In this document: in pieces, positions 840 to 63,445 of the stretch
How positions within the stretch are numbered: the first letter of the stretch is position 1
How the letters are laid out: every line of letters begins with the position of its first letter
Source of the DNA: Eledone cirrhosa
Taxonomy: Eukaryota
Reading direction: 5' to 3'
Length of the DNA stretch: 64,000 nucleotides
Assembly: GCA_964016885.1 (NCBI GenBank)
Contig: OZ024760.1
Span: 22,382,001-22,446,000 of the forward strand
Notes under the pieces: model-generated
The model's database searches: none
What the model was told of the DNA's origin: nothing
The model's input: the letters and a program-made list of their open reading frames with translations, nothing else
Position numbers and translations under genes: made by a program

Positions 840-1040
840 ATTTCCGATTTCTCTCAGAGTTGGGGTAACCACAGTTAAAAAAAAGAGTACTCAATACATT
901 AGGAAAGTATAAGCGTATTTTATTTTATATAAAAATGGCTTTTACAGGACTAAAACAGTTTCATTCAAATGAAATCATCAGGAAGGATTTCATACGAATG
1001 AAACAATTCTAGTCGTGCCGAAGATAGTTTTATATAAAAT
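840..1040 (-). mobile_element. HHR element family A, diverged copy with a short inverted (+) remnant at about 986-1040
   Basis: Reverse complement aligns to 14554-14688 (ctgatgatttc..gaatgaaac..tagtcctgta..gtattgagtac..actgtggttacc). Confidence 0.8.
938..986 (-). ncRNA. Type I hammerhead ribozyme motif, family A, degenerate
   Basis: cttc CTGATGA tttc attt gaat GAAAC tgttttagtcct GTA aaag; stems I and III partly mismatched. Confidence 0.55.
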
Positions 1041-1090
1041 AATATTTATACTTATATATATATATATATATATATATATATACATATATA

Positions 1091-1310
1091 CAGTCGATCG
1101 ACTTTCGTCAAATCGGACCGAGGAAACAATGTTTCCGTTGGTCTTTCCAATTGCTAATACTATCTATCGGTCGCAACTCCAGGTAGAAGCAGCAGCGTGA
1201 AATAAAGTGTCTTGCTCAAGGACATAACACATCGTTCGGTCCAGGAAACGAACTCACAACCTCATGATTGCGCATCCAATTCTCTTACCACTCAGCCACG
1301 TGACTTCACA
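1091..1310 (-). mobile_element. tRNA-derived SINE, CORE-like family
   Basis: A box (tggctgagtggtaa), B box (gagttcgtttcc), gtccttgagcaagacact core; homologous to 37635-37863. Confidence 0.85.
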
Positions 1311-1532
1311 TACATATATATACATACATATACATATATATAAACACACACACACACATACACACACAAATAGTATCAAAGGAATCTCAATCTTGTTTCA
1401 TCAAATAATTATTTTTAATCTCTTTCAAATGTTTCGGGTGAACTGTGACCTCGAATTATTCAATTGTTTTTGTAAATTTCATCTTCATCAATAGACTAAA
1501 TATAAATCTTGCCTCGCACTTCACCTTCATCA

Positions 1533-1680
1533 GAGGGTTTAATATAGAAATGGCTACTACAGCGCTAGAACTGTTTCTAGTCTTGTAGAAGCCATATCTA
1601 TATTAAAACTCATGTTAACTCTCTAATAATATATAAAGTATCTTACTTATTGTGGTACCCGTGAGTGAACCCGGGACTCA
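1533..1680 (+). mobile_element. HHR element family A, fold-back remnant lacking the core
   Basis: Inverted tttaatatagaaatggctactaca/tgtagaagccatatctatattaaa followed by the family A 3' end. Confidence 0.7.
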
Positions 1681-1979
1681 AACACACACACACACACACA
1701 CATATATATATTATATATATATTATATATATATATATATATATATATATATATATATATACATACATATATATATATGTGTGTGTGTGTAGATAAATCTA
1801 CCAAAATATACGGTAGTATCCAATCCGTATGAAGAACTCAATGTAATCCAAATATCATGAAAAGAGAAGATGTATTCAAATTTTTTTCGATGAAAAACAC
1901 AGGAAAACAGAGTCAAGATAAATTACTAAAAATAATGAATAAAAACAAAGAAACAGTTCCTTATATTAAAAAATTCATC

Positions 1980-59524: not shown

Positions 59525-61292
59525 ATCATATCCACTGCCTCTTTCCTTTCTGAAACCACACTCCCACTCAGGTAACAATTTCAAAACAATCTTTGAGATC
59601 AATCTAGCCATCAAAATTCGACACATGACTTTACCAACTACTGAATGAAGTTATATGCCACGATAATTGCCACATTTAACTTTCTCAACCTTTACTTTAT
59701 GGAGAATCACCACGAGTGCATCGATCCAATCTTGTGCGATTCTCATCTTCCCACACCTTTTTCAGGAGGTCAGTCAGATGCTGCGTGAAATTTCACCACC
59801 GCACTTCAAAACCTCTGCACTCAGACCATCCATACAAGGAGACTTACCACAGTTCAGCTTATACACAACAGATGTCACTTCTGCAAGAGAAGGTAGACCA
59901 GCCATCTCCTGATTCACTGGTTCAATTGGAATGCAGCAAATGAGTTCAACCTGGGATGGTTGGTCCAAGAGCTCATCTTTTTCAGGAGGTCAGTCAGATG
60001 CTGCGTGAAGTTTCACCACCGCACTTCAAAACCTCTGCACTCAGACCATCCATACAAGGAGACTTACCACAGTTCAGCTTATACACAACAGATGTCACTT
60101 CTGCAAGAGAAGGTAGATCAGCCATCTCCTGCTTCACTGGTTCAATTGGAATGCAGCAAATGAGTTCAACCTGGGATGGTTGGTCCAAGAGCTCATCTTT
60201 TTCAGGAGGTCAGTCAGATGCTGCGTGAAGTTTCACCACCGCACTTCAAAACCTCTGCACTCAGACCATCCATACAAGGAGACTTACCACAGTTCAGCTT
60301 ATACACAACAGATGTCACTTCTGCAAGAGAAGGTAGATCAGCCATCTCCTGCTTCACTGGTTCAATTGGAATGCAGCAAATGAGTTCAACCTGGGATGGT
60401 TGGTCCAAGAGCTCATCTTTTTCAGGAGGTCAGTCAGATGCTGCGTGAAGTTTCACCACCGCACTTCAAAACCTTTGCACTCAGACCATCCATACAAGGA
60501 GACTTACCACAGTTCAGCTTATACACAACAGATGTCACTTCTGCAAGAGAAGGTAGATCAGCTATCTCCTGCTTCATTGGTTCAATTGGAATGCAGCAAA
60601 TGAGTTCATCAACCTGGGATGGTTGGTTCAAGAGCTCATCGAAGGGATTTCTACATCTGTCGAGTATGTCTTTTGGATCGCGCAGTAACTGCTTGCCATC
60701 TTTCGATCTCAAAGGTGCCACTAGTGAGCTGAAAGGGCCATATACTTCTCTGAGTAGAGAGTGCAGCAATTTCCCATTGTTGCCATCAGATGCCGCTTGA
60801 ACCTCATATGCTTTGTTGCTCCACCAGTTATTTTGTATGGCCCTGAGTTTCACCTGAACTTAATTCTTTACCTATCGTATTTAAGAAGTGTATCGAGTGC
60901 CTTTTGTTTTCTTGTCCAGCAGAGCCTTGACCTCCTGGTCATTCTCATCAAACCAGTATTTCTGTTTTCTTGTGACAAAACAAGGACCTCTGCTGAAACA
61001 TCATAACCCGAGTTCCTGATGTTATTCCAGTTGTTCGCACGATCAATACTTTAAACCTGCGACACAGCTCTTCCTTGGCACCTTCTTTCACACGATCTAT
61101 ATTGAAGCGTTTTAGAATCTTGATATCATTTGCTTTTGTTCGAGGTTTGATTACGAAGTTTGCCTTGGCCCGCACCAGTGATGGTCTGTCCAGCACTCTA
61201 CACCACGCAGGACACACACATGCTTGATACCCTTCATGTCACGTTTCTTAGCAAGAACAAAGTCGATCAGATGCCAACCTTTCGAACTATGT
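59525..61292 (-). mobile_element. RTE-BovB-like LINE fragment (APE C-terminus to start of RT), frameshifted, with 4 x 220-bp tandem duplication
   Basis: WHLIDFVL..RD.......RG.ECWTDH (APE); KLR.IQN.WW..KA.EVQ...D......L.EVYGP.....APLRSKDG..L; GKSP..DGL.AEVLK.GG; LPE.ECGFRKERG. Confidence 0.92.
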
Positions 61293-62809
61293 CTATATAT
61301 ATATATATATATATATGTCTCTATCGCTCTCTCTCTCTCTCTCTCTCTCTCTCTCTCTCTCTCTCTCTCTCTATATATATATATATATATATACATTTTG
61401 TGAAGAAACAGAGGATGTGTAGTTGCTGGATAAAGTGTATTTATAAATAAGAAGGCACAAACTAGGGTAGTTTCCCTTCATCAGTTGTCTGCTGGAGATC
61501 ACGGACATTTCTTCGCATTAAAGACAATATGTCTAGCTCCAGTGCATCAATAACTAAAGGAAGTTATTAGAGAAAAAGGAGAGAGAGAGAGAGAGAGAGA
61601 GAGAGAGAGAGAGAGAGAGAGAGAGAGAGAGAGAGAGAGAGAGAGAGAGAGAGAGAAATAACAGAAGGGGGAAAAGAAAATATAAAGAAAAAAAAAATGG
61701 AAAAAAAAAGGGAAAAAAACATACCGAAGATGGAAAAAAGAGAAGCACGTCTAGTAGCAACCGAAAGGAAGAAAGGCCAAGTCAACATCAGTTAGTGGAC
61801 TTAAGAACGTACATGCTCAAAGGCAGTTACGGACATTCATCGATAAACTCTCAGAAGATACAACCCCTCAATAGAAAACAGTTGCCCGGAGAAAATAAAA
61901 AAATCGTGAAACGTGAATTGTGGAGGGATTTGTCAGGAATGTTTAACTTAACTGAGGTAGAAATGGTGGGGATAAACGGTATTTGTCGAAGGTCTATACG
62001 AAATACATTCTTTGATATGGTGTGACACAATGAGCAGGTGAAACCAACTCAACTGTATTTGCAATCTGTCAGTAAATACAAGGGGGGGGGGTCGTTTCTT
62101 TCTGAGATTTATGTCGTCTGAACAGATTTTATAAATTAATTTACGTAAATAATTGCCAAGGCCGACCATTGTAAAAAATATCTCACTAAATCCAAAACAC
62201 TAAATGATACAGTATGTTGAATAACTCTTGGACATGTAAATAATTGTATGTATACACACACACACAGATATACTAATATACATATATGTATACATATATA
62301 TATATATACACATACGTATATAAGCTTACATATCTTAGCCCATTCTACTACACCAAGTCTCGAGTATTCTAGTGTGTAATGGTCCAACCAGTTTCTAACT
62401 GAATCCATCCTCATAAAACATACATATATTCATATAAATATATTTAAACATACATACATAAGTATATATACAGATATATTAAATATACATATGTATATAA
62501 TGTGTGTGTATATGTATGTTTAAATATATATATATATGTGTATGTTTATGAATGTATATGTATGCATGTTTAAGTATATATATATATATATATATATATA
62601 TATATATACAAATGTACTTTCACAAAAACCTTGCATATATATATACCTCTCTCTATCTCTCCCCCTCTCTCTCTCTCTCTGTATATATATATATGTGTGT
62701 ATCACTCACTCTCTTTCTCACATTATATATATATATATATATATATATATATATATATATATATATATATATATATATATATATAATTAAATATATATCT
62801 GACCAGGAA

Positions 62810-63160
62810 TGCTTTTTGTGAGAATCAGTCATATGGAACTATTGTCATCTTGCCTGACGGTTTGAACTTTACAACACCACCTGCCTCTTTGAGGTCAAAT
62901 ACCAACCCTACTAGCATCTACAAACTGACCAATGAGAATTAAGACTATTCCTACTAACAACATTAAATTATTCCTAACAAGCTCATATGTCCCAAGGCTC
63001 TGATACCATCAACACTATAAACACAGAGCTGGCATATCTAGGAACTGACTAACTGCCTGATGAGGTCATAGCCATTCAATGGCTATCCTCGAATATATAT
63101 AGCAGTAAATAAAGGATTATGAGTTCATGCAATTGACTTATGTTTCGTCACTATATAGTT
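62810..63160 (+). mobile_element. HHR element family M, second copy
   Basis: Near-identical to 48711-49061. Confidence 0.9.
63052..63106 (+). ncRNA. Hammerhead family M, one A lost from GAAA
   Basis: actgc CTGATGA ggtcatagcc..ggctatcctc GAA tatata TA gcagt. Confidence 0.6.
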
Positions 63161-63398
63161 ATATATATATATATATAATATATATATATATATATATTAT
63201 TATACTTGGGGAGGGTCATATTTGTGTAATATTGCCAGAATTAATAACAGAACACACTCACTGTTTGGTTGGTTTTCGCTTCTCACTTCTGTGTCTTTTA
63301 TATCGGTAATCTAACTTACTCGGTCCTCAATGTTGCCATTGACTGACCGACGGTCAAAAATAATACAGATACAATATAGTCACAAACACATATATATA

Positions 63399-63445
63399 GT
63401 TTATCATAAATCTTTCGTTGCACATCTGCAACATCGTCAGTGGTG
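63399..63445 (-). ncRNA. Partial hammerhead-like motif
   Basis: CTGACGA t gttgca gatg tgcaac GAAA; stems I and III not recovered. Confidence 0.35.

Follow-up and report, generated by a model that had tools for sequence, protein, structure and literature searches.

Most type I hammerhead motifs in a 64-kb window of the Eledone cirrhosa genome are probable 3' stubs of coding Penelope-like element families

A 64-kb stretch of the 3.0-Gb genome of the octopod Eledone cirrhosa (assembly GCA_964016885.1, contig OZ024760.1, positions 22,382,001-22,446,000; G+C 33%, simple repeat 55%), referred to here as the window, contains 29 full-length type I hammerhead ribozyme motifs in 15 families (F2 and F3 counted as one), together with about eight remnants. 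Most of these motifs are very probably 3' pseudo-long-terminal-repeat (pLTR) stubs of many coding Penelope-like element (PLE) families, and their predicted cleavage would serve the RNA of the element itself rather than the host. Ten of the 15 families, comprising 18 of the 29 motifs, extend in other copies into open reading frames (ORFs) with a reverse transcriptase (RT) and a GIY-YIG endonuclease; as these families continue upstream into ORFs, the window copies represent 5'-truncated copies of autonomous PLEs. An earlier note, made from the letters of the window alone, had described dispersed PLE-type type I hammerheads in many families, targeted to TA and present genome-wide, all of which is borne out; its further reading, in which short non-coding elements formed the majority, is not. 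Copies attached to RT and GIY-YIG ORFs, which it had thought worth seeking, were found for the ten families mentioned.

Hammerhead motifs of the window

Exact CTGANGA words number 29 in the window, with about ten lying outside assigned motifs (for example at 1533, 35505, 51338, 59509 and 61484). The strictest descriptor identified seven type I hammerheads against a mean of 0.07 in 30 local dinucleotide shuffles, and a second nine against 0 (50 shuffles); the final descriptor, with 40 shuffles, gave 12 against a mean of 0.2 at a score of at least 10 and 16 against 0.5 at a score of at least 9. The descriptor was relaxed three times after inspection of the window, with the shuffles repeated for each version, and the final version was used on independent DNA. 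Early descriptors were blind to a mismatch at the base of stem II, to the minimal ACGU loop and to U3-A8 cores; the final counts are lower bounds, owing to the omission of stems II longer than 62 nt and of all U3-A8 forms. A score-9 match at 62380-62420 was discarded as chance, as it sits within the tail of another family.

When 239 distinct motifs taken from loci elsewhere were mapped onto the window, 24 full-length homologues were obtained, and five further motifs, at 2511 (-), 2690 (+), 13650 (+), 34954 (-) and 63440 (-), were recognized by eye. Those at 13650 and 34954 were at first assigned to F8, and a search places them in a separate family, F15. Only 12 of the 29 motifs have an unchanged CUGANGA/GAAA core and pass the descriptor; the remaining 17 are decayed or variant. 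The hammerhead motifs of the window are confirmed as real type I folds. The earlier estimates of about 20 motifs and more than ten families hold, and all nine examples singled out there as clean (3003, 3431, 13836, 14554, 14805, 26008, 41929, 48764 and 54171) are type I hammerheads at those positions.

An Rfam scan of the window gave no match at the gathering score, which supports, for Rfam, the expectation that standard annotation would miss the motifs. The best 150 of 520 window matches are TA-hairpin microRNA models, and for three intact motifs (13780-14960) there is no hammerhead model among the 36 matches at E ≤ 10. The hammerhead models of Rfam are built on canonical forms.

Stem pairing and predicted cleavage

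Pairing was assessed on 0.99 Mb of unselected DNA with a core-only pattern in which pairing is not required. Stems I and II both pair in 49 of 54 hits, compared with 1 of 4 in reversed sequence and 0 of 6 in three shuffled copies; stem III is perfectly palindromic in 43 of the 54 and the base before the cut is A in 50. Within 11 recurrent clusters, which have shared ancestry and are not fully independent, pairing with the motif's own partner exceeds that with swapped partners (4.64 versus 2.49 of 5, and 3.18 versus 2.31 of 4), a level reached in 0 of 5,000 permutations. Families therefore each keep their own stem I and II pairs, as had been claimed.

The motifs combine CUGANGA and GAAA cores and a UH site in the stem order I-core-II-GAAA-III-UH-I, with U3-A8 variants besides. 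Stem III is mostly a palindrome of 6-10 nt, and stem II reaches 14 bp or more. Two cleavage sites predicted in the earlier note (after 14597 on the plus strand; between 14812 and 14811 on the minus strand) coincide with H17 of the scan, a match of position at which cutting is predicted.

Coding elements behind the families

Six of the coding families (F1, F4, F5, F6, F10 and F13) are classed as Hydra-type, by the linker in all but F10, and four (N1, N2, F8 and F9) have a Neptune/Nematis-type linker. From a GIY-YIG search of the genome, the best 150 of 10,597 candidates were scored. In the longer N-type loci, ORFs of 636-1096 aa combine RT and GIY-YIG with a CxxxxCxxC linker and the 3' pLTR holds a hammerhead; at locus L150 a hammerhead is present in both pLTRs, 5' as well as 3'. 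Canonical hammerheads were first seen in the 3' position at 1 of 30 GIY-YIG loci, and at more once U3-A8 was allowed; the window motifs at 15812, 49111 and 29813 are solo 3' ends of N1 or N2 with U3-A8 cores. Of three N-type ORFs, Pfam recognizes RVT_1 in all and GIY-YIG in two. Linkage to a coding segment was observed in 10 of 36 N1 copies and in 11 of 14 N2 copies (loci obtained through the GIY-YIG search), and F9 is linked to an ORF in 2 of 12 copies. Pairwise identity is 44-53% among N-type elements and 22-27% between F9 and the others. The F9 motif (63385-63445, minus strand; also at L040 and L259) keeps CUGAYGA, stem II and GAAA with a proximal stem I of only 2 bp, and may be an unusual hammerhead variant ending a divergent PLE.

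Upstream of F4 is a same-strand C-terminal PLE segment in 20 of 59 copies, a count that includes loci picked for spaced pairs, and in 17 of these it lies at a distance of 0.84-1.31 kb. Intact F4 ORFs of 775-821 aa are present in three loci (L317-L319), two of which (L317 and L318) have a hammerhead on either side, and direct pLTR pairs of this family are 3.7-4.4 kb apart. F6 is similarly organized, with the coding segment 1.09-1.31 kb upstream in 10 of 32 copies and direct pLTR repeats about 4.0 kb apart. For F1, ORFs were found in two of the eight loci fetched for it (L311, with an ORF of 597 aa, and L312), and the 3' untranslated region (UTR) is common to L311, L312 and L068 at 81-86%. The sizes of 130-500 bp given earlier for the elements apply to the stubs and not to whole elements.

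The Hydra-type elements encode RT in a single ORF that ends in GIY-YIG and carries YRDD and VY.C...Y.G.T motifs, with RWTA, RWIA or RWRA in the RWKA position. DKT is present in 3 of 3 covering ORFs (F1 and F4) and the CxCx5C linker in 6 of 6 (F1, F4, F5, F6 and F13). Judged by eye, DKT, YRDD and CxCx5C match the published Hydra alignment in the supplement of PMC8557442. The identity of these ORFs is based on such motifs together with a weak match to an N-type RT.

Several observations weigh against the assignment of the motifs to coding PLEs with active ribozymes. The coding links of F5, F8, F10 and F13 come from one or two loci each, the partners of F5 and F10 being endonuclease fragments only. 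For F2/F3 the link is inconsistent, with a partner in 3 of 68 copies at varying distances (23 of the copies have 2.5 kb of upstream DNA), and F11, F12 and F14 are without a coding link in the copies examined. In five Hydra-type ORFs Pfam detected no RT or GIY-YIG above the cut-off, and the clade names used here are provisional, following linkers, motifs and pairwise identity rather than an RT tree. Site-specific self-cleavage is a prediction from sequence. The three-way junction is the minimum-energy fold in only one of eight monomers (z-scores -2.1 to +0.2); such weak monomer folding fits dimer dependence, without being a demonstration of activity. In published work (PMC4209133) a minimal PLE hammerhead had no activity as a monomer and weak activity as a dimer.

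Features of the window

3003-3085 (-): F7 hammerhead, intact, H17 at 3009; lies in a monomer, truncated at its 5' end (2833-3226), of a retrozyme-like non-coding tandem unit of 525 bp
3428-3495 (-): F2 hammerhead, intact, H17 at 3437; element 3295-3517, coding partner not found
13836-13903 (-): F4 hammerhead, intact, H17 at 13844; two-armed stub at 13810-14082, from a Hydra-type PLE that has intact ORFs at other loci
14554-14602 (+): F1 hammerhead, intact, 4-bp stem III, H17 at 14597; Hydra-type PLE 3' stub
14804-14866 (-): F5 hammerhead, intact, H17 at 14812; probable Hydra-type PLE 3' stub with a long TG-rich UTR (two linked loci)
26008-26078 (-): F4 hammerhead, intact, H17 at 26016
41824-42064: F1 inverted pair, hammerheads 41842-41892 (-) and 41929-41979 (+); minus arm ends about 75 nt before the terminus
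47409-47890: F3 (F2 superfamily) inverted pair, hammerheads 47538-47605 (-) and 47759-47826 (+)
48763-48820 (-): F6 hammerhead, intact, H17 at 48769; 48713-49060 matches, at 99% identity, the pLTR of a Hydra-type PLE of 4.05 kb
54171-54208 (-): F8 minimal hammerhead, ACGU loop, H17 at 54176; 3' stub of an RT + GIY-YIG PLE, CxxxxCxxC linker
63052-63108 (+): F6 hammerhead, one A of GAAA missing
45575-45650 (+): F2 hammerhead, stem III altered; deleted inverted arm 45432-45548
838-1046: older F1 two-armed copy, hammerhead 933-986 (-), stem I decayed; more F1 remnants at 1538-1674
16023-16485: F12 inverted pair, U3-A8 hammerheads with long stem II at about 16075-16190 (-) and 16306-16405 (+); no linked partner found
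15812-16001 (+): N1 3' pLTR stub, U3-A8 hammerhead decayed; 85-90% to RT + GIY-YIG elements
49111-49317 (+): N1 3' pLTR stub, U3-A8 hammerhead; 87-91% to RT + GIY-YIG elements
29813-30124 (+): N2 3' pLTR stub, U3-A8 hammerhead; 75-85% to most GIY-YIG-linked copies
51512-51850: F10 inverted pair, U4C core, hammerheads 51689-51737 (-) and 51761-51804 (+); weak link to a Hydra-type endonuclease
34531-34800: F11 fold-back, hammerhead 34648-34693 (-) with C3A; no linked partner found
2511-2799: inverted pair related to F13, U3-A8 cores damaged, stems II and III both long; remnant of F13 at 52002-52064
63200-63499 (-): 3' stub of F9 (96% to an element with RT + GIY-YIG ORFs); motif at 63385-63445 hammerhead-like, stem I short
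2331-2378 (+): F14 hammerhead, decayed, A9U
13640-13762 (+): F15 minimal hammerhead, decayed; second copy 34853-34968 (-)
35785-35941 (+): F4 remnant, ribozyme 3' half and complete tail
30181-30422: F2-type remnant pair

Insertion ends and a model of insertion

The copies show the structure of PLE insertions, namely 5' truncation, partial tandems, inverted 5'-truncated copies and a one-sided tail. A TA/RY-repeat-like 3' flank was observed for 230 of 279 family pieces, in a genome that is itself TA-rich and with no random-flank comparison; among Hydra-type families the TA flanks amount to 21 of 23 (F1), 56 of 69 (F4), 26 of 28 (F5) and 17 of 21 (F6). Six of nine families examined (F1, F2, F4, F5, F7 and N1), coding and non-coding alike, have two fixed 3' ends, short and long, with counts of 27 and 37 among 69 pieces for F4, 11 and 25 among 36 for F7, 7 and 21 among 28 for F5, 11 and 19 among 31 for F2, 9 and 16 among 28 for N1, and 2 and 19 among 23 for F1. 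Located 57-115 nt before the terminus, mostly on the inverted arm, the short end is always downstream of the cleavage site, and in the template sequence a few T/A bases often follow both end points. The 5' ends vary widely within families. The ribozyme is about 60-190 nt from the terminus in six families measured, and 22 of 90 motifs from a genome sample (see below) have a partner on the opposite strand. Short reads contain copies that terminate at 14619 and continue in TA, as well as opposite-strand joints.

In the model that we propose, the GIY-YIG endonuclease would nick (TA)n and the RT would copy the element RNA from its 3' end. Primed in the nicked TA repeat, reverse transcription would stop early, leaving short 3' stubs; owing to the position of the ribozyme near the 3' end, even the shortest copies would keep it, giving rise to the high motif density. 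Priming by the second target strand would use another fixed site on the RNA, 57-115 nt upstream, and so produce the shorter inverted arm, and the two reverse-transcription products would be joined head to head. Ribozymes with a palindromic stem III are likely to cleave as dimers, trimming or circularizing the RNA between tandem pLTRs, non-coding units may borrow the PLE enzymes, and most solitary stubs would be inert.

Small hairpins are found 10-25 nt behind the copy ends of several families; they are weak (-4 to -10 kcal/mol) and have no control set. Inserted inside the tail of an F4 inverted arm (L148) is a run of TTAGGG-type telomeric repeats, of interest because the PLE RT is akin to telomerase. 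Nine window fold-backs were examined for A-to-G editing scars; polarity by strand was not clear, the largest splits being 5:1 and 3:7.

The non-coding family F7 and alternative explanations

F7 is a non-coding 525-bp tandem unit with one hammerhead per unit (the 525-bp period is seen in L213/L216 and L228). It occurs in dimers and trimers and also forms partial tandems; some of its inverted arms exceed one unit in length. A snap-back origin of these arms was rejected, as several contain sequence upstream of the start of the direct arm; this and their length beyond one unit point to two priming events on tandem or circular RNA.

Organization of this kind would fit a reading in which the short elements are mainly non-autonomous families, similar to retrozymes or short interspersed elements (SINEs), spreading as small, possibly circular, RNAs by means of PLE enzymes. 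Such an account is possible but considerably less likely than derivation from coding PLEs. Besides the dimers and trimers of F7, it is favoured by tandem arrays of 310, 466 and about 480 bp among the genome hits, by the absence of a coding link for F2/F3, F11, F12 and F14, and by one two-armed F4 layout of 273 bp, possibly an amplifying unit, which is shared by each of the 40 copies with the best scores, nearly all of them having identical end points. However, ten window families reach ORFs, short tandems hold only 10 of the 90 sampled motifs, and 5' ends vary widely inside families; the non-coding tandem feature of retrozymes fails for F1, F4, F5, F6, F8, F9, F10, F13, N1 and N2, which have ORFs upstream. 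The non-coding radiation proposed in the earlier note is accordingly established for F7 and not for most families. The tandem hammerhead arrays (periods of about 310, 466 and 480 bp) lie on C1 at 1.24, 3.96, 5.39, 5.54 and 5.74 Mb and in L045, often as back-to-back pairs.

That the motifs are host-selected regulatory ribozymes, cutting or processing host transcripts, appears highly improbable. Intact-core motifs are very numerous and stems are conserved across families, but this conservation is among source elements rather than insertions, with more than half of the window motifs decayed or variant. The young families are 97-99% identical, so that intact cores need no selection, and no host gene was recognized among the window ORFs (from the ORF list, in the absence of gene annotation). 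An origin by coincidence in low-complexity, AT-rich sequence, or by assembly error in the form of long-read fold-back palindromes, has a negligible probability and is already refuted for the motifs themselves: although the window is rich in simple repeat and perfect palindromes (for example, 41824-41997) can be artefacts, counts in shuffled and reversed sequence are close to zero, copies of the families are spread over many chromosomes, their arms end unequally at fixed points, and the short reads show the TA-flanked end at 14619 and opposite-strand joints.

Genome-wide load

The genome sample comprised 99 ten-kb stretches, whose round positions were picked by hand on 27 chromosomes; unplaced contigs were excluded. 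Ninety motifs were found against about five in shuffles, so that an excess over shuffled controls, the comparison suggested in the earlier note, is present both here and in the window. Per Mb, large chromosomes have 67 motifs, middle ones 45 and small ones 127, corresponding to an estimated 229,676 motifs in the genome (bootstrap 164,765-300,385), or 198,893 (138,543-267,354) with exact cores only. Whole-genome searches with exact patterns for two stem-III classes returned 111,692 occurrences against 3,827 in the control and 78,401 against 5,626, about 180,000 above control when combined (3 of 54 sample hits are common to both); these patterns exclude F1, F5, F7, F8 and all U3-A8 forms. The earlier figure of one motif per 3 kb describes the window when decayed copies are included, and intact motifs average about one per 13 kb across the genome.

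The sample contains 41 families (32 superfamilies), with Chao1 estimates of 99 and 59 and a few singletons that are probably false. Seven families that were searched each have at least 40 dispersed copies, 88-100% identical, and the repeats are at high depth in two public DNA runs. No RNA data set was listed as containing the neighbouring stretch 3947-4920, which served as the query. At 188 motifs per Mb the window falls inside the spread of values for small chromosomes (resampling P 0.17; 0.05 versus all stretches) and is typical to high for the genome. TA tracts are twice as numerous in it as on average, and motif number correlates with tract number (rho 0.38). The best GIY-YIG matches are mainly on the four largest chromosomes, and hammerhead stubs are about twofold denser on small ones. 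A single F1 44-mer occurs 7,515 times in the genome with a strand bias (4,415 forward, 3,100 reverse), and a large F1 tandem array may exist somewhere in the genome; an F4 30-mer is even (7,485 and 7,484).

Relation to known systems

The system is of a kind already known; it is the scale and the clean two-ended geometry of the insertions that stand out. Cervera and de la Pena (2014; PMC4209133) described many heterogeneous families of PLE hammerheads, mostly single dispersed motifs ascribed to truncated PLEs, which answers for the kind of element the earlier note's query on prior description. Shared with those hammerheads are opposite-strand pairs (there 100-700 bp apart), the U3-A8 core, an extra base before stem II, a palindromic helix III and predicted action as dimers. 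The motifs studied here differ in the 6-10-nt palindromic stem III, in a stem II of up to 14 bp or more, in the preference for A before the cut and in number, thousands there and about 200,000 here, as counted with different descriptors (about 2,000 + 1,300 in Schistosoma mansoni, 4,000 in coelacanth and 9,000 in Xenopus tropicalis). Cephalopods are not mentioned in the results or discussion of that paper.

Craig et al. (2021; PMC8557442) reported one octopus family of the Hydra clade, Hydra-1_Obim from Octopus bimaculoides, which has a canonical hammerhead and prefers (TA)n. The Hydra-type families resemble the Hydra clade, as set out in the available text of that paper, in DKT, YRDD, the CxCx5C linker, a C-terminal GIY-YIG and a 3' hammerhead, and in (TA)n insertion, inverted 5'-truncated copies and a one-sided tail. 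They differ in comprising at least six distinct families, in the replacement of RWK by RWxA, in units of 3.7-4.4 kb (generally below 3 kb in that paper, a tendency and not a strict limit), in tails of 57-115 nt compared with 30-40 bp, and in the 15,000 exact copies of one 30-mer. N1, N2, F8 and F9 share RT, a C-terminal GIY-YIG and a CxxxxCxxC linker with Neptune/Nematis-type elements (CX2-5CxxC in PMC8557442), whereas N1 and N2 use the U3-A8 core; this grouping is by linker and not by tree.

F7 resembles the metazoan non-LTR retrozymes (Cervera and de la Pena 2020; PMC7229834) in its non-coding tandem, one type I hammerhead per repeat and dispersed monomers, but such a description fits 1 of 15 window families, and F7 has two-armed insertions of the PLE type. 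Non-LTR retrozymes number up to 120,000 in axolotl, and those of a coral include more than 6,000 motifs in 16 families. In a 2026 preprint (Li et al., 10.64898/2026.07.22.740005) retrozymes are derived from PLEs. The giant squid paper lists 235 hammerhead-1 loci, and a 2026 Octopus vulgaris repeat paper describes 31 recently active PLE families in a main text with no use of 'hammerhead' or 'ribozyme'. No cephalopod hammerhead census was found in the literature searched (subscription papers and bioRxiv supplements being outside the search), and no count above 120,000 was found in the available text of PMC10085705, PMC6155905, PMC7761336 or PMC8490949. The estimate of about 200,000 motifs exceeds any count found in print, the largest published being the 120,000 of axolotl, with descriptors that differ.

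The genome would thus hold some 200,000 predicted self-cleaving motifs, those of the window missed by Rfam, and the axolotl figure comes from a genome about ten times larger. Young families with intact ORFs and thousands of two-ended insertions provide material for the question of how PLE tails and inverted arms form, for which Craig et al. (PMC8557442) call for an in vitro system, and the families are a natural library of hammerhead variants (U3-A8, U4C and long stem II). More speculatively, and in our view doubtfully, this would be the largest hammerhead load recorded (about 2 x 10^5 intact motifs in 60-100 families) and one that is not inert, its ribozymes cutting host transcripts. Same-family copies in one pre-mRNA, or in trans, would then complete the palindromic stem III, inverted pairs would supply double-stranded RNA, and a retroelement ribozyme would influence RNA processing throughout the octopod genome; introns would be expected to show depletion on the sense strand, and RNA ends to occur at H17.

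Other sequence features

The F10 core is CCGANGA (U4C) in both window arms (51689-51804) and in other loci among L040, L150, L222, L242 and L257; being present in both arms and in several other loci, the change appears to be family-wide. About 100 nt upstream of the F11 ribozyme (L023, L030, L055 and L262; 34531-34800 in the window) is the octamer ATGCAAAT, which we take to resemble a promoter element of the small nuclear RNA type.

Three fold-back repeats between TA tracts (1918-2313, 15288-15738 and 20538-20999) have no canonical hammerhead assigned and are possibly PLE stubs or permuted ribozymes; in that at 15288-15738, one half consists of GAAA, stem III and UA, and the core upstream is damaged. 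Two segments, 13129-13596 (+) and 60384-61293 (-), presumably correspond to C-termini of non-LTR (RTE/CR1-type) RTs. In keeping with an octopod genome, one dispersed repeat looks like an octopus SINE, and Argonauta supplies the only named homologue of one ORF. A SINE-like repeat of 190 bp is present in about ten copies, 81-91% alike (3529-4100, 18020-18208, 30684-30831, 31448-31957, 47155-47337, 49705-49888 and 50779-50931), and minisatellite arrays with 71/142-bp and 70-bp units and 91-95% matches occupy 4965-9511 and 37885-39918.

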